Shown: positions 904-27,977, counted from the first letter of the stretch. The stretch: 55,782 nucleotides of DNA from a virus (IMGVR_UViG_3300005077_000023:1-55782), one strand, 5' to 3'. Notes: a model not told the origin generated them from the sequence alone. Made by a program: numbers and translations.

Positions 904-1536
904 ATGTTAGTATATGTAGCTGGAAAATATAGTGGAAATGTAACAGAAAATATTGAAATAGCCAAAAAAGTAGCAATTGAATTATGGAGCAAAGGACATT
1001 CAGTTATATGCCCACATACAAATTCAGGATTTTTTGAAAATGGATCATCAATTACATATGATATGTTTCTTAATGGTTATTTAGAAATAATGAGAAGATG
1101 TGATGTAATAATTATGTTAGAAAATTGGAAAGATAGTAAAGGAGCAACAATAGAATATAATTATGCAAAAGAATTAAAAAAACCAATATATTTTTACCCA
1201 TCAATTCCAGATTTACATCCTACTGAAATAAATTGTCCAGAACAATGTAAATCATTTATGGAAATAATAATGAAAATGTATGATGTACATTTAGAAAAAA
1301 ATTCAGATTATTCTCCTGCAAATATATTAGCAACAGGAGAACTTGGATTAGTTACAAGATTATGGGATAAAATTGCAAGACTATTAAATTTATATGGATT
1401 TAGATTTAAAATAGAAAAAGGTACATATGATAAACCAAAAAATCCTAAAAATGAAAGTATAGAAGATACTTTAATGGATAATGCAGTTTATTCTATAATT
1501 GGATTAATATTAAGAACAAATAAATGGGGGAAATAA
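904..1536 (+). CDS. DUF4406 (deoxyribosyltransferase-like) fused to a DUF1599/nucleotide-modification-associated domain
   Basis: N-term YVAGKYSG...CD.I.ML.NW..SKGA.IE...A; C-term KNSDY...GLVTRLWDKIARL...NESIEDTLMD.AVYSII; GGAGG RBS. Confidence 0.7.
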   Translation: MLVYVAGKYSGNVTENIEIAKKVAIELWSKGHSVICPHTNSGFFENGSSITYDMFLNGYLEIMRRCDVIIMLENWKDSKGATIEYNYAKELKKPIYFYPSIPDLHPTEINCPEQCKSFMEIIMKMYDVHLEKNSDYSPANILATGELGLVTRLWDKIARLLNLYGFRFKIEKGTYDKPKNPKNESIEDTLMDNAVYSIIGLILRTNKWGK

Positions 1537-2024
1537 AAATAAATCATTATATAACTGCAATTCCATATAATTATTTATCAAATAAAAATTTTATACAATC
1601 AATAACAAAAAATTTTTTATTAATTTCTATATTATCTCCCGAATATAATAATTTTGAAATGATAAATACTGAATATTGTATTGATATTTTAAGTTTAAGA
1701 TTTCATGATATTGTAAATAATGAAATAAGAACATTATATGTTGGAAATAACAAATGTGAAATAAAAAAAATATCAAATTCTGATGTTATTTCCATAATAA
1801 CTTTTATAAATAAATATAAAGATACATATAATGAATGGTTAATTCATTGTGAAGCTGGAATGAGTAGATCAACTGCAGTTGCATTAGCAATATCACAAAT
1901 ACTCAATGGATATAATAATTATGATACATTTATCCAATCAGTGTATGGATTACAACATCATAATGTTGAAATTAAAAATAAAATATTAGATGGTTGGAAT
2001 GAATATAATAAAAAAATATTATAA
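1524..2024 (+). CDS. Protein-tyrosine/dual-specificity phosphatase family protein
   Basis: CX5R motif IHCEAGMSRSTAVA and upstream FHD acid loop. Confidence 0.75.
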   Translation: MGEIKINHYITAIPYNYLSNKNFIQSITKNFLLISILSPEYNNFEMINTEYCIDILSLRFHDIVNNEIRTLYVGNNKCEIKKISNSDVISIITFINKYKDTYNEWLIHCEAGMSRSTAVALAISQILNGYNNYDTFIQSVYGLQHHNVEIKNKILDGWNEYNKKIL

Positions 2025-2098
2025 AATAATACATAATTTTTTACTGTTTAAAATTTATTTTTATATTTAATATTAAATTTAACAATAGGAGAAAATTA

Positions 2099-2632
2099 AT
2101 GCATTATACATCATCATATAGTTTAAGCAGTAATGTTAATACAACACTTTCAAAAGAAAATATTATACATTATTCTTTTAAATCAAAAGGTTCAAGTTAT
2201 AATGGATTAAAAAATAAAGTAATTATTTCATATAAAAGCGGAAGTACATTTATTCCATTTGCATCAAACAGTTTTTCAATTTCTGATACTGTTAATTTAT
2301 ATTCATATACTGCATCTCTTAATAAATCTACAGATAGATTAAAAATTGAATTTAGTGGAAGTACATATCTTATTGGAACTGGTTCATTTTCATCTGTTTA
2401 TGTATTATATGATTCTATAACTTTATCTGAAAAAAGTAGTTCTTACAGTGGTTCAAATTTGTTAGTTAATCCTGGATTTGAAAATACAAGTTCAGCATTT
2501 TATTCATGGGAAATTACAAGTTCAGGTTATGCTTGGACTCCAAATGGTATGTTTAATAGTTTAGCTTATACTGGTGTTCAGAAAATTGATGATTCTACTT
2601 CAGCAATGTTTGTAGTATCAAATGAAAAATAA
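2099..2632 (+). CDS. Ser-rich hypothetical protein, possibly virion or carbohydrate-binding
   Basis: GGAG RBS; NLLVNPGFE motif typical of CBM-like beta-sandwiches; SGS repeats like the structural proteins in this window. Confidence 0.5.
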   Translation: MHYTSSYSLSSNVNTTLSKENIIHYSFKSKGSSYNGLKNKVIISYKSGSTFIPFASNSFSISDTVNLYSYTASLNKSTDRLKIEFSGSTYLIGTGSFSSVYVLYDSITLSEKSSSYSGSNLLVNPGFENTSSAFYSWEITSSGYAWTPNGMFNSLAYTGVQKIDDSTSAMFVVSNEK

Positions 2633-2641
2633 AAAATATAT

Positions 2642-2670
2642 TTGTATTAAAAATAAAATATTATTATATT
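2642..2670 (+). promoter_or_regulatory. Sigma70-like promoter
   Basis: TTGTAT-N17-TATATT upstream of the metallophosphoesterase. Confidence 0.45.
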
Positions 2671-2695
2671 TGAAGTAAATATAATAGAGGAAAAA

Positions 2696-3421
2696 ATGAA
2701 TCGTTTATTTTTAACTGGAGATACTCATGGAGAATTAAACCGAATATCATCAAAAAACTTCAAAGAATCAAAAATTTTAGATGAAACTGATGTTATTATT
2801 ATACTTGGTGATTTCGGTTTATTATGGTGGTATCCAGAAAATAAACATTATAAACAAACATTATATAATATAGAATGGTTAAAAACCAAAAAATTTAATA
2901 TTTGTTTTATAGATGGAAATCATGAAAATTTTTATTTATTAAATAAATTACCAGTTATACAAAAATTTGGTTCAGAAGTTGGTTATATATCTGATAATAT
3001 ATTTCATTTAAAACGAGGCAATGTTTATAACATAAATGATTATAAAATATTAACAATTGGTGGTGCATTATCAATTGATCGTAATAATAGACAATTAAAT
3101 GTATCATATTGGAATGAAGAATTATTATCAAATACAGAAATAGAAAAAATTTTAAATTTAATTGAATATGATAATATCTTTGATTTAATATTAACACATA
3201 CTGCTCCATTAAGTATTATTAAACAAATGTTTGAATATCCATTAACAGAAAAAGTAAACGATTCAACCACTAAATTTTTAGATCATATAAAAAATAATAT
3301 TAAATTTAAAAAATGGTATTTTGGTCATTTTCACGAAAATTGTGTATTTGAAAACTATACTTGTTTATATAAAAATATAATTGAAATAAATAGAGAACAT
3401 AATGAAACTTATTTTAAATAA
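2696..3421 (+). CDS. Calcineurin-like metallophosphoesterase
   Basis: GDTHG, GDFG, DGNHE, THT and GHFH motifs. Confidence 0.85.
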   Translation: MNRLFLTGDTHGELNRISSKNFKESKILDETDVIIILGDFGLLWWYPENKHYKQTLYNIEWLKTKKFNICFIDGNHENFYLLNKLPVIQKFGSEVGYISDNIFHLKRGNVYNINDYKILTIGGALSIDRNNRQLNVSYWNEELLSNTEIEKILNLIEYDNIFDLILTHTAPLSIIKQMFEYPLTEKVNDSTTKFLDHIKNNIKFKKWYFGHFHENCVFENYTCLYKNIIEINREHNETYFK

Positions 3422-3674
3422 TATTCAAATTGAAATATTAACATTAATGTTAAATGATTGGATAATATATGAAACAATAAATACATCTAAATATTGCTGG
3501 ATACAAAAAAATTCAGAAAGAAAAATGATAGATAAAAATGATGTAAATATATTATATAAAAATAAAATAATTTTATGGAATTGTGGTTTTCCAACTGGAC
3601 ATTATAAATTAAATCCAGAAAAAAATATCAATAAAATAATTAATACTGCCAATAAAAAAAATCAAAATAAATAA
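3402..3674 (+). CDS. Hypothetical protein
   Basis: 90 aa ORF overlapping the end of the previous gene. Confidence 0.55.
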   Translation: MKLILNNIQIEILTLMLNDWIIYETINTSKYCWIQKNSERKMIDKNDVNILYKNKIILWNCGFPTGHYKLNPEKNINKIINTANKKNQNK

Positions 3675-3685
3675 TATTTTAATAC

Positions 3686-3715
3686 TTGATTTTTATATTT
3701 TTATTTCGTATATTA
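3686..3715 (+). promoter_or_regulatory. Sigma70-like promoter, identical to the 30-bp copy at 25715
   Basis: TTGATTTTTATATTTTTATTTCGTATATTA (TTGATT-N17-TATATT). Confidence 0.7.
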
Positions 3716-3741
3716 TAATGTAGTAAATTAGGATAAAAATA

Positions 3742-4899
3742 ATGTTAGAAATTCAAAAATATTTAAAATCAAATACAATTGAATCATTAACCAAACATCC
3801 ATATAATTTACATGTTAGTTCAACTAAAGATTTAATTTTATTTAAATACAATCAAATAGAATCTGATTTTTCCTTGCAAATTGTGCAGGAATCACGAGGA
3901 ATTATTTTAGATAAAACAACATTTGAAATTATATGTAATCCATTTTTCAAATTTTGGAATCTTGGAGAAACTCATGCATATAATAATATTAATTTAAAAA
4001 ACTCTATAATTATGGAAAAGAGTGATGGCTCAATTATAAAAGTATATTTTTATAAAAATGAATGGCATATTGCAACCAATGGAACAATAAATGCAGTTGA
4101 TGCTGAAATAAGTAATACAAATTTTTTTCAATTATTTATTGATGTAATTCCAAATTATAAAGAACTATTTACAAATTTTGATAAAAAAAATACATATATT
4201 TTTGAATTAATTCATCCAGTTTCTCAGATAGTAGTTGATTATAAAAATAAAAAAGAATTAGTTCTTATAGGAATTAGATCAAATGATATTAATAATATGA
4301 TAGATTATAATATATTTCATAATTCTATTAAATTAAAATATGAAAAAATATTTTTAAATTTTCCTATTAGATTTCCAAAAATTTATACATTTAATAATGA
4401 TATTTCAGAATTATCAAATTATGCAGATAAAATAAATAAATCTGGAAATGAATTTGAAGGTTTTGTAGTTACTGAAATAAATGATTATAAAGTTACAGGT
4501 AGAGTAAAAATAAAATCTTCACAATATTTAATATTACATCGATTATGTACTGGAGATAAAGTAGAAACAAATCTGGTTGATGTGTTATTAAATGGAAATA
4601 CTGATGAATTTGAAGTATATATAAATAAATTTCCAGTAAATACATCCATTCAATATTTTAAATTAAAACAATCTTTTAATGAATTTTATAGATATATATC
4701 AGATAGTTATGAAATTTATAAAGATATGGCAAATAAAATTAGTAGAAAAGAATTGGCATTAAATGTTATATCTCACAATAAAAATATATCTTCATTTATA
4801 TTTACTTTAATAGATTATCCAAATACTACTATTATGGATGTATTAAAAAAATTAGGATCAAAAAAATTAAAAGAAATTTTATTAAATAGGATAAAATAA
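3742..4899 (+). CDS. T4 Rnl1-like ATP-dependent RNA ligase
   Basis: ESRGIIL, PFFKFWN, motif I EKSDGS, FEL, motif IV EGFVV, motif V VKIKS. Confidence 0.85.
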   Translation: MLEIQKYLKSNTIESLTKHPYNLHVSSTKDLILFKYNQIESDFSLQIVQESRGIILDKTTFEIICNPFFKFWNLGETHAYNNINLKNSIIMEKSDGSIIKVYFYKNEWHIATNGTINAVDAEISNTNFFQLFIDVIPNYKELFTNFDKKNTYIFELIHPVSQIVVDYKNKKELVLIGIRSNDINNMIDYNIFHNSIKLKYEKIFLNFPIRFPKIYTFNNDISELSNYADKINKSGNEFEGFVVTEINDYKVTGRVKIKSSQYLILHRLCTGDKVETNLVDVLLNGNTDEFEVYINKFPVNTSIQYFKLKQSFNEFYRYISDSYEIYKDMANKISRKELALNVISHNKNISSFIFTLIDYPNTTIMDVLKKLGSKKLKEILLNRIK

Positions 4900-5496
4900 A
4901 TGAAAGATACAGAATTAAATTTAAATCAACAAAAATTATCAATGGTAATGGGATTATTAGCATCAATTGAAGATTCAGATTATACCACAAAACATTCATT
5001 ATTAGTTGGAAGATTATGTAAAGGTATTGCAGAAGAATTAAATTTAACTGATACTGAAAAAAAAACTGTTATATGGGCTGGATATTTTCATGATATAGGA
5101 AAAGTAAAAATTGATAAAAATATTATGTTTAAACTTGGAAAACTTTCAGATGATGAATTTGAAGAAATGAGAAAACATTGTCAATATGGTTATGAAATAT
5201 TAAATTTATATGATATGAAAAAAGAAGCAGAATTAGTATTACAACATCATGAAAAATTAGATGGAACTGGTTATCCAAATAAATTAAAAAATGATGAAAT
5301 ACATAAATTGACAAAAATAATTTCTGTTGCTGATGTTTATTCTGCAATGGTCATAGATCGACCATATCAAAAGAAAAAAACATCTGCTCATGCTTTATTA
5401 GAACTATATGGATTATCTGGGAACCATTTTGATATTACTTGTGTTAAAGCACTACATAAAGTATTAATAAAAACAAAAAAAATAAAAATATATTAA
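4900..5496 (+). CDS. Standalone HD-GYP phosphodiesterase (cyclic dinucleotide PDE family)
   Basis: YT.KHS, HDIGK, HHEKLDGTGYP, VADVYSAM..DRPY. Confidence 0.9.
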   Translation: MKDTELNLNQQKLSMVMGLLASIEDSDYTTKHSLLVGRLCKGIAEELNLTDTEKKTVIWAGYFHDIGKVKIDKNIMFKLGKLSDDEFEEMRKHCQYGYEILNLYDMKKEAELVLQHHEKLDGTGYPNKLKNDEIHKLTKIISVADVYSAMVIDRPYQKKKTSAHALLELYGLSGNHFDITCVKALHKVLIKTKKIKIY

Positions 5497-12891: not shown

Positions 12892-12963
12892 TCCGATGTA
12901 GCTCAATGGCAGAGCAGATGGCTGTTAACCATAAGGTTATAGGTTCAAGTCCTATCGTCGGAG
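12892..12963 (+). tRNA. tRNA-Asn(GUU)
   Basis: TCCGATG/CGTCGGA; loop CTGTTAA; G73. Confidence 0.92.
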
Positions 12964-12970
12964 CAAATAT

Positions 12971-13042
12971 AAGTATGTTGGTTAATTGGTAAACCAACAG
13001 ACTCCAAATCTGTGACTGTAGGTTCGAGTCCTATCATACTTG
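12971..13042 (+). tRNA. tRNA-Trp(CCA)
   Basis: AAGTATG/CATACTT; ACAGA-CTCCAAA-TCTGT. Confidence 0.92.
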
Positions 13043-13047
13043 CTATT

Positions 13048-13140
13048 GGAGCTTTTTCCTGTTGGCAGTCTGTAAAACTGTTGCCCATAAATATAAAACA
13101 GGTTGGTTAAGGGCGTGTGGTTCGAATCCATGAAGCTTCA
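13048..13140 (+). tRNA. Atypical tRNA-Tyr(GUA): no canonical D-arm, enlarged variable arm
   Basis: GGAGCTT/AAGCTTC; GCAGT-CTGTAAA-ACTGT; TGTGG-TTCGAAT-CCATG; only about 9 nt between the acceptor and anticodon stems. Confidence 0.75.
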
Positions 13141-13146
13141 CAAAAT

Positions 13147-13219
13147 CCACGTATAACTCAATTGGTAGAGTACCTGTCTTATACGCAGTTAGTTGAAAGT
13201 TCGAGTCTTTCTACGTGGA
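13147..13219 (+). tRNA. tRNA-Ile(UAU)
   Basis: CCACGTA/TACGTGG; loop CTTATAC; A73. Confidence 0.85.
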
Positions 13220-13220
13220 C

Positions 13221-14814: not shown

Positions 14815-14886
14815 GGTCATATAGCTTAATGGAAAAGCAATTGCCTGATACGCAATAGACTCTTGGTTCAAGTCCATGTATGACCA
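14815..14886 (+). tRNA. tRNA-Ile(GAU)
   Basis: GGTCATA/TATGACC; ATTGC-CTGATAC-GCAAT. Confidence 0.9.
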
Positions 14887-14916
14887 CAAGAAAAAAAACA
14901 AATTTAAGGAGGTTAT

Positions 14917-15652: not shown

Positions 15653-16750
15653 ATGTTAGATTTTTTATTTACAAAAATTATAAATACTATTGATGATTTA
15701 GTTTTAATATTAAATGATAATATAATTATTGAAGCTAACAATAAATCATTATCTGAATTTGGATCAAATATAATAAATAGTCCAATATCAGAATTGATAC
15801 CAGATAATTTAGATTCTTTTTTAGAATTTATATCTGGAAATGAAACTTCAAAAAATTTTATATTCAATAATAAAAAAATATATTCTTGTAAATTCATTAC
15901 ACATGTAGAATTTATAATATTATTTTGCTCTGATATTGAAAAATATTATTTATTAAATGAACAAAATAATATAAATAAATATAAATTTGATGTATTATTT
16001 AATAATGAATCAATAGGAAATGCAATATTAGATTTAGATATGTCTTTTATAGAACTTAATTCAAAAATATCAATTTTATTAGGATATGAATTTGGAGAAT
16101 TAAACTCTATGAATTTAAAAAATATAATTTATAAATCTGATATAGATTTATATAATGAAATATTAAATAAAATAAAATCAAAAAATAATTATTATGGAGA
16201 AATAAGATTAGTTAAAAAAAGTGGATTATACATATGGACATTAATAACAATATCTTCATATAATTATAAAAACAATACAATATATTATATATTAAATATA
16301 CAAGATATATCTGAACAAAAATATTATCAAGAAAAAATTCAAAAAACCGAAGAAAGATATAGAGCATTGATTCATAAATCGTTTCATGCTATTGTATATA
16401 AAAAATTAATATATGATAAATCAGGAAATATAATAGATTATATTATAATAGATGCTAATCCAACATTTGAACGAGTAACAGGATTTAAATTAAATGAAAT
16501 TATTGGACGACCAATGAAAATGAAAGCCGCAATACATTTTAATGTATCCGATGATGAAAATAATTTAAGATTACAACGATATGATAGAATTTTAAAAGAT
16601 AATCAAGATATTCATTATAAATCTCAACCATCAAGAACATTTAAATATCCAATTGATGTATATTATTATATTTTAAATAAAGATGAAAATATAATAGCAG
16701 TAGTCTTTGGAGATGAACAAAACGATAGAGAAATTATACTAAATTTATAA
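15653..16750 (+). CDS. Multi-PAS domain protein with no recognisable output domain
   Basis: PAS/PAC signatures: LLGYEFGEL, EIRLVKKSGLYIW...IQDISEQK, EERYRALI, DANPTFERVTG....IIGR. Confidence 0.75.
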   Translation: MLDFLFTKIINTIDDLVLILNDNIIIEANNKSLSEFGSNIINSPISELIPDNLDSFLEFISGNETSKNFIFNNKKIYSCKFITHVEFIILFCSDIEKYYLLNEQNNINKYKFDVLFNNESIGNAILDLDMSFIELNSKISILLGYEFGELNSMNLKNIIYKSDIDLYNEILNKIKSKNNYYGEIRLVKKSGLYIWTLITISSYNYKNNTIYYILNIQDISEQKYYQEKIQKTEERYRALIHKSFHAIVYKKLIYDKSGNIIDYIIIDANPTFERVTGFKLNEIIGRPMKMKAAIHFNVSDDENNLRLQRYDRILKDNQDIHYKSQPSRTFKYPIDVYYYILNKDENIIAVVFGDEQNDREIILNL

Positions 16751-17520: not shown

Positions 17521-17823
17521 GGGGACGATCTGGATTCGACATTCAGATCAGAGATATTGAAATCAATCAAACTTGCAGTGATGCAAAAAGAATAAATAAC
17601 ACTTATAGATTAGTTGCTTAATTATATTAAGCTATTACTCCATGATGTTAAATAGTGGAAGTAATATCGTATTTAACAAAAAAATGGTCTCAATCCATTC
17701 AAAATGAGTTTTAAATAGTTTTTTTTATTTAACATTTAAGTAAAAAGTAAATAAAATATGATTGTAAAAAATTTCAGTATTTAAACTGGATGGACATGGG
17801 TTCAAATCCCATCGTCTCCACTA
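17521..17823 (+). ncRNA. ssrA: tmRNA
   Basis: 5' GGGGACGATCTGGATTCGAC and 3' GGACATGGGTTCAAATCCCATCGTCTCCA (alanyl acceptor with G3:U); internal tag frame ...AKRINNTYRLVA* ending at 17621. Confidence 0.92.
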
Positions 17824-17824
17824 T

Positions 17825-17899
17825 TGCGGGATGGACTGGAGGTGGTTCCAGCTTGGTCTCATAAGCCAAATCACATGGGTTCGACTCCCATTCCCGCAA
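17825..17899 (+). tRNA. tRNA-Met(CAU), initiator-like body
   Basis: TGCGGGA/TCCCGCA; TTGGT-CTCATAA-GCCAA. Confidence 0.88.
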
Positions 17900-17953
17900 C
17901 TTTAAATAATTGTAGTTATGGTTAAAATTAATCTCTTAACAATGGAGGTCGTC

Positions 17954-19534
17954 ATGCAAAAATATCAACATTCAGTAAATAGTCCACAAACTGAACCAAT
18001 AATTGGAAAAGAATCCTTAATGGAAAAAAATTATGCTGGAGGATATGTTTTTAAATTGGATGATTTAAAAACATTAGATAGATTTTTAATTCTTGGATCA
18101 GATTCGCCTACTTATTATGCATCTGCTCGTAAACTTACAAAAGAACATTTGAAAAATATTATGAATTTAATAAATACAAATGGTAAAGCTGTAATTGATC
18201 GAGTAGTCGAAATATCTCATAGTGGACGTGCTCCACATAATGATCCTGCATTATTCGTATTAGCGGCAACAACAATAAGTAATGATCCTAATGTCAGAAA
18301 ATATGCTTTTGAAAAATTACCGTTAGTAGCAAGAATTGGAACACATTTATTTCATTTTGTAGAATATGTAAAAGCATTTCGTGGATGGGGAAGATCATTA
18401 CGAAAAGGAGTATCACATTGGTATTTAACAAATAAAAATTTACCATTACAATTAGTTAAATATCAATCAAGAGATGGAATGTCACATCAAGTTCTTATAC
18501 GTTTGTCACATCCAAAAACAGATGATCCAATTATAAATAAAATGTTTAATTGGTCAGTTAATGGAGTTTATGATATTAATGAAGTTAGTGATATTCCATT
18601 GATTTATGGATTTGAATTAATTAAAAAAGCAACTAATGAAGATGAAGTTGTTAAATTAATTAAAAAATATAATTTGCCACGAGAAGCAGTTCCTACACAA
18701 TTCATGGGAAATAAAGTATGGACTGCATTATTTCCAAATTTAAATATTGAAGCATTAGTACGAAATTTAGGAAATTTATCTCGACATGGTGTATTAACTG
18801 ATGGAAATTTTAATAATATTAATTTTGTAGTTGAAAAATTACATAATGTAGATATAATTCAAAAATCCAGAATGCATCCTCTTCAATTTATGACTGCTTT
18901 ATCAACTTATAAATCTGGACGAGGATTAAAAGGATCAGGAACATGGTATCCAATTCCAAATATTGTTTCTGCATTAGAAGATGCATTTTATTTATCATTT
19001 AAAAATGTTATTCCTTCTAATAAAAAAATACTTTTAGCATTAGATGTATCTGGTTCAATGAGTGTAGAAATTAATAATCTTGGAATTAGTGCAAGAGAAG
19101 CCACTGCAATATTAGCAATGGTAACAATGAGAACTGAACCTAATTGGTCTATTGTAGGATTTACTCATCAATTATCTAAATTAAATATTGATAAAAATAT
19201 GACATTAAATGAGGTAGTTAGAAAAATTTCTGGTCTTTCTTTTGGAAGTACAGATTGTTCATTACCAATGTTATATGCAAAAGATAAAAATTTAGATTAT
19301 GATGCAATAGTTATTTATACAGACAATGAAACATATTTTGGAAATACACATCCATCTATTGCATTGGCAAAATATAGAAAATTTATTAAACATGATGTTA
19401 AATTAGTTGTAGTTGGTATGACATCAACTCAATTTTCTATAGCTGATCCAACAGATAATGGAATGTTAGATGTAGTTGGATTTGATAGTAATTCTCCATC
19501 AATTATATCTGATTTCATTTCTGATAAAATATAA
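17954..19534 (+). CDS. Ro60/Rsr-family TROVE + vWA RNA-binding protein
   Basis: NYAGGYVF...LDRFLILGS..PTYYAS; HLFHF...RGWGRSLRKGVSHWY; LVKYQSRDG.SH..L.RLSHP; vWA ALDVSGSM, TDCSLPM, YTDNET, GMLDVVGFD. Start taken at the ATG after GGAGG. Confidence 0.95.
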   Translation: MQKYQHSVNSPQTEPIIGKESLMEKNYAGGYVFKLDDLKTLDRFLILGSDSPTYYASARKLTKEHLKNIMNLINTNGKAVIDRVVEISHSGRAPHNDPALFVLAATTISNDPNVRKYAFEKLPLVARIGTHLFHFVEYVKAFRGWGRSLRKGVSHWYLTNKNLPLQLVKYQSRDGMSHQVLIRLSHPKTDDPIINKMFNWSVNGVYDINEVSDIPLIYGFELIKKATNEDEVVKLIKKYNLPREAVPTQFMGNKVWTALFPNLNIEALVRNLGNLSRHGVLTDGNFNNINFVVEKLHNVDIIQKSRMHPLQFMTALSTYKSGRGLKGSGTWYPIPNIVSALEDAFYLSFKNVIPSNKKILLALDVSGSMSVEINNLGISAREATAILAMVTMRTEPNWSIVGFTHQLSKLNIDKNMTLNEVVRKISGLSFGSTDCSLPMLYAKDKNLDYDAIVIYTDNETYFGNTHPSIALAKYRKFIKHDVKLVVVGMTSTQFSIADPTDNGMLDVVGFDSNSPSIISDFISDKI

Positions 19535-27416: not shown

Positions 27417-27977
27417 GTGATAATAAAAGAAATAGAAAAATTACGAATTATATCAAATTCAATAACAAATAAAGATGAAATTGATAATATATCTTATTTA
27501 TTAAAAAAAGAATTAAATAATCATAAAAATGGAGTTGGACTATCTGCTCCTCAAATTGGAATATATAAAAAAATATGTTTAATTAAAATCGGAAAAAATG
27601 AAATAATTTTAATTAATCCAGAAATAATTGAATATTATGGAGAAACATTTTATACTGAAGGTTGTTTATCATTTCCAAATGAAAATATATTAACAAAAAG
27701 ATATTCAGAAATAACAGTAAAAACAATTAATGAATTATTATATTTTAGTATTGATAATAATGAACTTGAATGTATTGCAGTTCAGCATGAAATTGATCAT
27801 CTTAATGGAATTTTAATGTTTGATCGAAAATATATTCAAAATCCAATTATTAATATAAATAAAATTAAACCTAATACATTAGTAAAAATATATAATGAAA
27901 ATACAAAAAAAGAACTATATTTAAAATACAAAAAATGCCAACCATTATTGCAGGAAGGATGGATATTACGTGAATAG
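27417..27977 (+). CDS. def: Peptide deformylase
   Basis: GVGLSAPQIG, EGCLS, QHEIDHLNG. Confidence 0.95.
   Translation: MIIKEIEKLRIISNSITNKDEIDNISYLLKKELNNHKNGVGLSAPQIGIYKKICLIKIGKNEIILINPEIIEYYGETFYTEGCLSFPNENILTKRYSEITVKTINELLYFSIDNNELECIAVQHEIDHLNGILMFDRKYIQNPIININKIKPNTLVKIYNENTKKELYLKYKKCQPLLQEGWILRE

Follow-up and report, generated by a model that had tools for sequence, protein, structure and literature searches.

The tRNA array of the virus record IMGVR_UViG_3300005077_000023:1-55782 raises one question: which RNA fills the gap that standard annotation leaves between two of its transfer RNA (tRNA) genes, and could it be the tRNA-Tyr that the array appears to lack? The record is a 55.8-kb IMG/VR virus sequence, estimated to be 28% complete, and was analyzed over its whole length (the window). 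ARAGORN found 24 tRNAs for 18 amino acids in the window, leaving Tyr and Cys as the two without one. Of the 14,707 codons in 51 open reading frames, 5.75% specify Tyr (TAT 818, TAC 28) and 0.83% Cys. The gap, between the end of tRNA-Trp at 13043 and the start of tRNA-Ile(tat) at 13147, is occupied by a 93-nt unit at 13048-13140 on the plus strand, with flanking spacers of 4 nt and 6 nt. We are nearly certain that the structure described below for 13048-13140 is real and conserved. The unit is probably a functional decoding tRNA-Tyr(GUA) in which the connectivity of the D-arm has been rewired, a reading that rests on comparison of sequences.

A local D stem-loop (positions 9-26) is absent from the element. 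At the D-arm site, TTTCCTGTT (13055-63) is all that precedes G13064, that is, 9 nt compared with the 17-19 nt expected of a D-arm. The remaining tRNA features are present: an acceptor stem and discriminator, a 5-bp anticodon stem with a 7-nt loop, and a T arm with a TTCRA loop. GGAGCTT (13048-54) pairs with AAGCTTC (13133-39) in seven pairs, one of them G.U, and the anticodon stem and loop read GCAGT-CTGTAAA-ACTGT (13065-81) with the anticodon GTA at 13072-74. The sequence features of Tyr identity, namely A73, G34-U35-A36 and a stem in the variable region, are present as well, charging itself being a prediction. Within the 34-nt variable region, GCCC and GGGC form 4 bp that enclose 24 nt, and this loop holds AACAGG (13097-102), the perfect complement of CCTGTT (13058-63) and located 33 nt downstream of it. 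Every coordinate given for these parts in an earlier note on this DNA was present in the sequence.

Standard tools did not report the element. ARAGORN run with default, low-score, intron and mitochondrial (-mt) settings gave no plausible tRNA at 13048-13140; its relaxed call there, a "Phe(aaa)" with a 38-nt intron, was judged implausible. The Rfam tRNA model RF00005 had no match at 13048-13140, either at E<=10 or at the gathering threshold (29 bits), and no family of Rfam 15 matched this interval. The 24 neighboring tRNAs scored 41.7-74.8 bits on RF00005. The tRNAs stand out as GC-rich islands against the 22.5% GC of the window.

Relatives were not reached by direct similarity. A blastn search of the array region against cultured phages returned ordinary tRNA-Asn/Trp matches and nothing else, the element itself returned one 23-nt chance match, and two members of the window's own subgroup (defined below) returned no match to cultured phages. 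IMG/VR contained no exact copy of an 18-mer taken from the loop strand, and a related-locus search with two neighboring proteins found no relatives of the window. An exact 23-mer covering the anticodon arm and variable stem occurred in two unrelated phage contigs, in each within a canonical tRNA-Tyr whose variable arm is a short hairpin.

Pattern searches recovered a family. The first IMG/VR pattern placed a Tyr anticodon loop 33-60 nt before the T loop, a spacing larger than a normal tRNA-Tyr allows, and matched at least 120 loci. Among the matches listed, 14 loci shared the architecture of the window, in which 7-9 nt separate the anticodon stem from the acceptor stem and the long variable region contains the complement of this stretch; L081 and L119 were false hits. 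Two follow-up patterns gave 89 and then 95 loci, and a covariance model placed 93 of the latter 95 in the family, L280 and L299 being chance matches. What the patterns prescribed was the anticodon loop, some of the T loop and short motifs (TTCC, GTANTGG); they left the partner strands, variable stem, acceptor stem, discriminator and 3′ flank free. By these sequence criteria the element is a member of a large, previously unannotated family that occurs in many phages and in some bacterial tRNA arrays.

Two subgroups were distinguished. Subgroup 1, aligned as A3 (50 distinct sequences; MAFFT, with the structure written by hand), has a 7/5 split between acceptor and T stems and an invariant U8-A9. 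Its pseudoknot is formed by a 5-nt strand, mostly ACNNN, and NNNGT in the variable loop, followed by A-N-U-G-G. It also has a 4-bp variable stem and a linker with the motif TTAACAAAT (A3 columns 38-48), in which one A is invariant and the next two A's and the T are conserved in at least 90%; this conservation suggests that the linker is not a passive spacer but makes a contact, either tertiary or with a protein. Subgroup 1 takes in Bacteroides phage crAss001 and 30 related records. In crAss001, tRNA-Lys and tRNA-Phe are separated by an unannotated gap of 170 nt that holds the family member, at about 4140-4235 of MH675552, and no tRNA-Tyr is annotated within 1148-56000 of that record. Subgroup 2, to which the window belongs, was aligned as A4 (46 sequences; MAFFT) and as A6 (73 distinct sequences, fitted to a model). 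Its pseudoknot pairs a 6-nt CCNNNN with NNNNGG, followed by UGG, the variable stem has 3-5 bp, and the T loop is mostly TTCGATT. The window fits this motif with CCTGTT, AACAGG, TTGG and the 4-bp GCCC/GGGC; it shares UUGG in place of UGG with L285, and the extra U is also found in the genome hits L345 and L328. Both subgroups conserve the UGG that follows the loop-borne strand: T57 and G58 at 90% or above and G59 invariant in A4; T56, G57 and G58 invariant in A3.

The partner strands changed together. Covariation of CCTGTT with AACAGG in homologues had been named beforehand in the earlier note as what to look for, and it was found in both subgroups: the pseudoknot helix was 99.6% paired in A3, with double-sided changes in four of five pairs, and 99.3% paired over the 73 distinct sequences of A6, an alignment that was fitted to the model's structure and leans towards the model. 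One position of the A3 helix was occupied by GU 27, GC 8, CG 6, AU 4, UA 3 and UG 2. The A3 variable stem was 99.5% paired, with double-sided changes in three of four pairs. When the partners in A3 were slid by 1-3 columns, overall pairing fell from 98.1% to 36-51%; the same displacement in subgroup 2 reduced pairing from 93.9-97.3% to 37.7-56.1%. In A4 the pseudoknot helix was 96.4% paired, and four of six pairs showed double changes despite the window and L285 being one column out of register. RNAalifold, run on A4 without a supplied structure, predicted the CCNNNN/NNNNGG helix and added the pair 17-35 (equivalent to 26-44), which is paired in 40 of the 46 sequences. A variable stem of at least 3 bp was present in 72 of 73 subgroup 2 members, compared with a mean of 43.7 (maximum 50) after partners were permuted between sequences, although shuffle controls of this kind overstate significance because the sequences are kin. 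About 30 different variable-stem sequences occur in subgroup 2. Acceptor stems, on which no pattern was imposed, were 99-100% paired with many double changes. At the level of sequence, the alignments show two mutually crossing helices, a pseudoknot, with no D hairpin, and covariation backs both helices.

Membership of the window was assessed with a covariance model, R1, built from 45 subgroup 2 sequences with the window left out. R1 matched 13048-13140 at 73.8 bits (E 8e-20, E-values being rough) over model positions 1-86 of 86; in this alignment all six CCUGUU/AACAGG pairs were standard and no non-standard pair was marked. The best ordinary tRNA in the window reached 21.2 bits on R1, and other family members scored 61-94 bits. 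Column 8 was paired with column 86 in 46/46 sequences of subgroup 2 (GC 23, UG 13, UA 8, AU 2), and the conventional 49-65 pair (column 70 with 86) in 14/46. The family clearly favors an 8/4 branch, which would give subgroup 2 an acceptor of 8 bp with a T stem of 4 bp; within the window, either T13055 or T13116 is available to pair with G13132. The earlier note had described the acceptor and T arms as canonical; both arms are there, and the 8/4 split favored by the window's subgroup refines this description.

Several features left free by the search are those of working tRNA genes. The discriminator was A in 71/73 distinct sequences of subgroup 2 and 48/50 of subgroup 1, and CCA was encoded directly after it in 56/73 and 4/50, respectively. 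Two scans, of metagenomes and of IMG/VR, left the anticodon free. GTA was found in 103 of the 112 distinct metagenome hits listed; the others were five parsed two bases off, which were taken as GTA, one GCA in an apparent chimera, and three that were not tRNAs. The IMG/VR scan gave GTA in 72 of the 96 distinct hits listed, UCU or CCU in seven, and 17 that were unparsed or chance. The seven Arg-type loci (L512, L517, L529, L530, L542, L546, L583) have the 8/4 rewired scaffold with loops CTTCTAA or CTCCTAA; they scored 47.7-65.4 bits on R1, and the pseudoknot helix pairs in 7/7, with a variable stem of only about 2 bp. The metagenome contig L461 combines a rewired 3′ half of subgroup 1 with a 5′ half that has a normal-looking D-arm and a GCA (Cys) anticodon loop; it may be a recombinant or a pseudogene.

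The family extends beyond phages. The subgroup 2 pattern matched 66 places in 185,579 species genomes, and 40 of these were full-length R1 matches of at least 72 bits: 29 in Planctomycetota, nine in other lineages (mostly metagenome-assembled genomes, MAGs) and two unclassified. Among the other 26 loci, about 20 were judged by eye to be 3′ ends of transfer-messenger RNA (tmRNA) genes of Alcaligenaceae, none of them with a family-level R1 hit, and six were chance matches. The Planctomycetota matches include the chromosome of Lacipirellula limnantheis and Neorhodopirellula pilleata; the latter has two arrays 36 kb apart in which the matched stretch of the rewired gene (anticodon loop to T loop) is identical. 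At the Planctomycetota loci, examined over 3 kb, the rewired gene lies in an ARAGORN gap of arrays of up to 22 tRNA genes. Six Planctomycetota chromosomal loci (L381, L382, L387, L378, L388, L312) carry 16-22 tRNA genes per 3 kb in conserved gene order. Family members range from 22% GC (the window) to 70% GC among phages. On a Thermoplasmata MAG contig (L332), which may be viral rather than archaeal, ARAGORN labels the rewired tRNA-Tyr at 1493-1585 as a 93-nt "tRNA-Gly(ccc)", a call that shows how rewired genes get mis-annotated.

Canonical tRNA-Tyr genes were sought in the same genomes. Searches of 49 virus records over their whole length, with a pattern that can miss unusual canonical genes, found a canonical-length Tyr candidate in 13 and none in 36; among the 17 records that are at least 90% complete, the rewired form was the sole Tyr candidate in 13. 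A canonical tRNA-Tyr was also present in all five Planctomycetota genomes checked, and in the two whose loci were scanned with ARAGORN it lies in a Thr-Tyr-Gly-Thr cluster. A canonical class II and a rewired tRNA-Tyr stand about 100-250 nt apart in three IMG/VR loci (L275, L287 and L235; records G046, G050 and G047). Record G034 has two rewired copies 0.9 kb apart. The statement in the earlier note that this is the only Tyr tRNA holds within the 55.8-kb record, but some relatives carry a canonical tRNA-Tyr as well.

A number of these observations weigh against a decoding tRNA with this wiring, in addition to the leaning of A6 and the kinship behind the shuffle controls. Seen in the window alone, the pairing is unremarkable: a perfect 6-mer complement of the 9-nt stretch arose in 6434 of 200,000 shuffles of the 24-nt loop (3.2%) and in 10,761 of 200,000 shuffles of the 34-nt variable region (5.4%), and the z-score of the single-sequence minimum free energy (MFE) was -1.25, a stability that is not unusual. 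With a chance rate of 3-5% and this z-score, CCTGTT/AACAGG in the window by itself is only suggestive, and it is the comparative evidence that places it beyond chance. The anticodon loop, the T-loop parts and the short motifs cannot be counted as evidence because they were imposed by the search. The T stem was paired in only 87.7% of A6, and many members have a U.U or other mismatch. Finally, because a canonical gene coexists in 13 of the 49 virus records and all five Planctomycetota genomes, the rewired form is not always the sole source of Tyr decoding, and another role is possible.

Such a role defines the rival that survives best, which we consider improbable without dismissing it: a conserved tRNA-like RNA that does not decode and acts as a decoy or sponge for a tRNA-Tyr nuclease or modification enzyme, as a Ro60-bound RNA, or as a regulator derived from the array. 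The coexistence just described fits this explanation, as does the Planctomycetota arrangement, in which the canonical gene is part of a housekeeping cluster, as seen in two of the five genomes, and an accessory array houses the rewired gene; in the window, a Ro60/TROVE protein and a tmRNA are encoded about 4.5 kb downstream. However, the element keeps features of translation that a decoy does not need, including the 7-nt loop with GTA, A73, the encoded CCA in most of subgroup 2 and a covarying 12-bp branch, and the rewired form is the sole Tyr candidate found in most of the near-complete phage genomes. A decoy that draws variable-arm nucleases would moreover be expected to retain a canonical variable arm and not swap it. 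A Y-RNA-like partner of the nearby Ro60 was rejected as the principal explanation, the full anticodon arm being kept and the Ro-binding stem lacking; no Y-RNA was identified in the window, where the sole YrlA hit, at 12935-12995, was weak and reached 14.8 bits, the threshold being 69.

The long-range helix could also form without a pseudoknot, CCTGTT/AACAGG extending the anticodon helix while GCCC/GGGC stays unpaired, to give a rod and not an L-shape. The single-sequence MFE of the window does pick a nested fold in which GCCC/GGGC is not formed, and neither ViennaRNA nor RNAalifold is able to draw pseudoknots. Against a rod, the variable stem covaries in A3, it forms far more often in subgroup 2 than after permutation and in many different sequences, and a rod would leave the conserved UGG beside it without a role; we consider this fold very unlikely. 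Least credible is a decayed tRNA-Tyr pseudogene with a deleted D-arm, an insertion in the variable loop and a chance 6-mer complementarity, to which the rejection by tRNA finders, the chance rate in the window alone and a variable loop as A/T-rich as the 22.5% GC genome would lend themselves. Covariation contradicts it: at least 123 distinct sequences share the architecture, each of the five helices shows compensatory changes, and the architecture is found in phages from 22% to 70% GC as well as in bacterial arrays. R1, from which the window was left out, moreover gives the window 73.8 bits. Neither an intron nor a permuted gene was accepted as an explanation: the ends are in the normal place, and removal of the insert leaves no D-arm.

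The reading as a rewired tRNA-Tyr suggests how the molecule would be built. After the acceptor stem, of 8 bp by the family's pairing, and two U's, the 6-nt strand runs directly into the anticodon stem and pairs with the strand in the loop of the variable stem. This pseudoknot helix would replace the D stem and stack on the anticodon stem, and UGG would serve as G18/G19 in contact with the T loop, keeping the L-shape along an altered backbone path. Nucleotides 8-9, 10, 21-22 and 44-48 meet in the core of a canonical tRNA. There the chain passes from 9 through 10-21 to 22; in the element it would pass from 9 to "22-25", with "10-21" inserted between 45 and 48. The loop-borne strand is equated with the canonical 5′ D-strand (10-13) and D-loop because the GG motif follows it, and CCTGTT abuts the anticodon stem as 22-25 do. 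The earlier note had derived the 3′ strand of the D stem and the D-loop from the variable loop; covariation and the UGG favor a D strand and D-loop supplied from there, but the supplied strand matches the 5′ and not the 3′ D-strand. The loop-borne strand and (A)NUGG would stand for 10-13 and A14...G18G19, the short variable stem would act as a clamp, and the A-rich linker could lie in a groove of the new helix, like the loops of H-type pseudoknots. The RNA would be excised from the array transcript, receive CCA, be charged by the host tyrosyl-tRNA synthetase (TyrRS) through A73, GUA and the variable stem, and decode TAT and TAC. If the L-shape is kept, the molecule could still be handled by RNase P, TyrRS, the CCA-adding enzyme and EF-Tu, the last of which reads the 12-bp acceptor/T branch. 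The coordinates of the parts are given in Table 1.

Table 1. Parts of the 13048-13140 element and other annotated features of the window.
Feature	Coordinates	Strand	Basis or remark
Acceptor stem, 5′ strand GGAGCTTT	13048..13055	+	7 pairs plus an 8th, T13055.G13132, the 8th inferred from the family
Two-U connector from acceptor to pseudoknot strand	13056..13057	+	A4 columns 9-10: T9 invariant, T10 at least 90%
CCTGTT, 5′ strand of D-stem-like pseudoknot helix; abuts anticodon stem	13058..13063	+	Sequence, covariation, R1, RNAalifold
Anticodon arm: closing pair G13064.T13082; GCAGT/ACTGT; loop CTGTAAA	13064..13082	+	Sequence
Variable stem, 5′ strand GCCC	13083..13086	+	Sequence; variable stem of the family
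A/T-rich 10-nt linker ATAAATATAA, crossing to pseudoknot helix	13087..13096	+	A-rich linker throughout the family
AACAGG, 3′ strand of pseudoknot helix; putative structural equivalent of D-stem 10-13	13097..13102	+	Sequence, R1, A6
TTGGTTAA, putative D-loop mimic with conserved GG	13103..13110	+	UGG conservation in A3 and A4
Variable stem, 3′ strand GGGC	13111..13114	+	Sequence; variable stem of the family
Connector GT ahead of T stem	13115..13116	+	T13116 pairs with G13132 in the alternative 7/5 reading; family favors 8/4
T arm GTGG / TTCGAAT / CCAT	13117..13131	+	Sequence, family, R1
Acceptor stem, 3′ strand GAAGCTTC	13132..13139	+	Sequence, family pairing
Discriminator A73	13140	+	No CCA encoded in the window; A in 71/73 and 48/50 family members
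Dual-specificity phosphatase	1524-2024	+	Weak match
Calcineurin-like phosphoesterase	2696-3421	+	
Rnl1-type RNA ligase	3742-4899	+	
HD-domain protein	4900-5496	+	
PAS-domain protein	15653-16750	+	Embedded in the tRNA region
tmRNA	17521-17823	+	RF00023, 74.8 bits; directly before tRNA-Met 17825-17900
Ro60 orthologue	17918-19534	+	TROVE and Ro60 vWA domains; phrog_850; right after tmRNA and tRNA-Met
Peptide deformylase	27417-27977	+	

To our knowledge, the cloverleaf connectivity of cytoplasmic-type tRNAs is treated as near invariant, the known exceptions altering stem lengths (8/4, 9/3, tRNA-Sec) or deleting arms (mitochondria). With canonical bacterial class II tRNA-Tyr the element shares GUA, A73, a stem in the variable region, the T loop and a position in a tRNA cluster; it differs in having no D hairpin and in carrying the D-stem partner and the GG motif inside the variable loop. 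D-armless mitochondrial tRNAs such as tRNA-Ser(AGY) have an unpaired replacement loop in a shortened tRNA of animal mitochondria. There, as here, a short stretch stands in for the D hairpin between the acceptor and anticodon stems, but the stretch in the element is paired with covariation, the D-loop mimic lies elsewhere, and the RNA is 93 nt long and of phage or bacterial origin. The circularly permuted tRNA genes of Cyanidioschyzon merolae also depart from the canonical order of segments, and yield a canonical mature tRNA by way of a circular processing intermediate; in the element, by contrast, the 5′ and 3′ ends are normal and the permutation is internal to the mature chain. Mimicry of tRNA with a connectivity other than the cloverleaf is known from plant RNA viruses, in their tRNA-like structures, and from tmRNA, in its tRNA-like domain; these either form the acceptor arm through a pseudoknot or lack an anticodon arm, and some of them are aminoacylated. 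They do not serve as decoding adaptors in tRNA arrays.

The closest dimensions are those of 8/4 tRNAs. The available parts of Mukai et al. 2017 describe 8/4 tRNA-Ser, tRNA-His and allo-tRNAs with an ordinary D stem-loop made of a long stem and a tetraloop, and report 8/4 tRNAs in phage tRNA clusters (PMC5389517). An 8-bp acceptor, a 4-bp T stem, a 6-bp D-type helix, a sixth anticodon-stem pair and a variable stem are common to these tRNAs and the window's subgroup, and the dimensions of subgroup 2 also recall the tRNA-Sec-like allo-tRNAs in those parts of the paper. The element differs in lacking a local D hairpin, and neither Tyr nor a D strand in the variable loop is among the tRNAs that these parts describe (PMC5389517). 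Full-text searches of the open-access and bioRxiv literature yielded no phage or bacterial tRNA with a D strand paired to the variable loop. What would be new is the wiring of the tRNA parts; the kind of tRNA is itself known.

Why the rewiring would persist is a separate matter, on which two papers, in the portions available, offer a lead: retron-Eco7 and Septu (PtuAB) block phages by cutting the variable arm of tRNA-Tyr, T5-like phages escape by means of their own tRNA-Tyr, which is reportedly resistant through its variable loop, and T6 amplifies its tRNA-Tyr gene (PMC11555353, PMC13096335). A variable arm tied into the core could be a more radical escape from tRNA-Tyr nucleases. We tentatively suggest, by this analogy, that the rewiring may persist by removing or burying the exposed variable arm that anti-phage nucleases cut. 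The systems in the available portions of those papers concern canonical tRNA-Tyr in E. coli phages, and evasion by the rewired form is a conjecture, a point to be set against the idea. The window contains a possible tRNA/RNA repair cluster at 904-5496 on the plus strand (Table 1). Its genes for RNA repair and translation are context for the evasion idea and not proof of it. At 13147-13220 on the plus strand, ARAGORN placed a tRNA-Ile with the anticodon TAT, and a second tRNA-Ile(GAT) lies at 14815-14887; the former would be a direct reader of AUA, which fits the extreme A/T richness of the window.

The fullest reading joins these points: an undescribed but widespread class of decoding tRNA in phages and mobile tRNA arrays, mostly Tyr with a small Arg-type UCU/CCU offshoot, with a rewired core whose L-shape a pseudoknot preserves, and kept by its invisibility to nucleases (Septu/PtuAB, type I-A retrons). 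We offer it as a speculative possibility. If it is true, the architecture of a tRNA, and not just the sequence of its anticodon loop, evolves in the phage-host arms race, and every standard annotation of these genomes misses a functional tRNA. The family would give a testable link to the recently described defense systems that cut the variable arm of tRNA-Tyr. It would explain the "missing" tRNA-Tyr of phage arrays, including that of the cultured model phage crAss001, and expose a blind spot of ARAGORN and Rfam. Genetic-code engineering would gain a new orthogonal scaffold in a rewired tRNA. An RNA that retains every part of a tRNA in a different wiring order would be a new solution to the L-shape, and it would test how far shape, as opposed to topology, is what RNase P, the CCA-adding enzyme, TyrRS, EF-Tu and the ribosome recognize.

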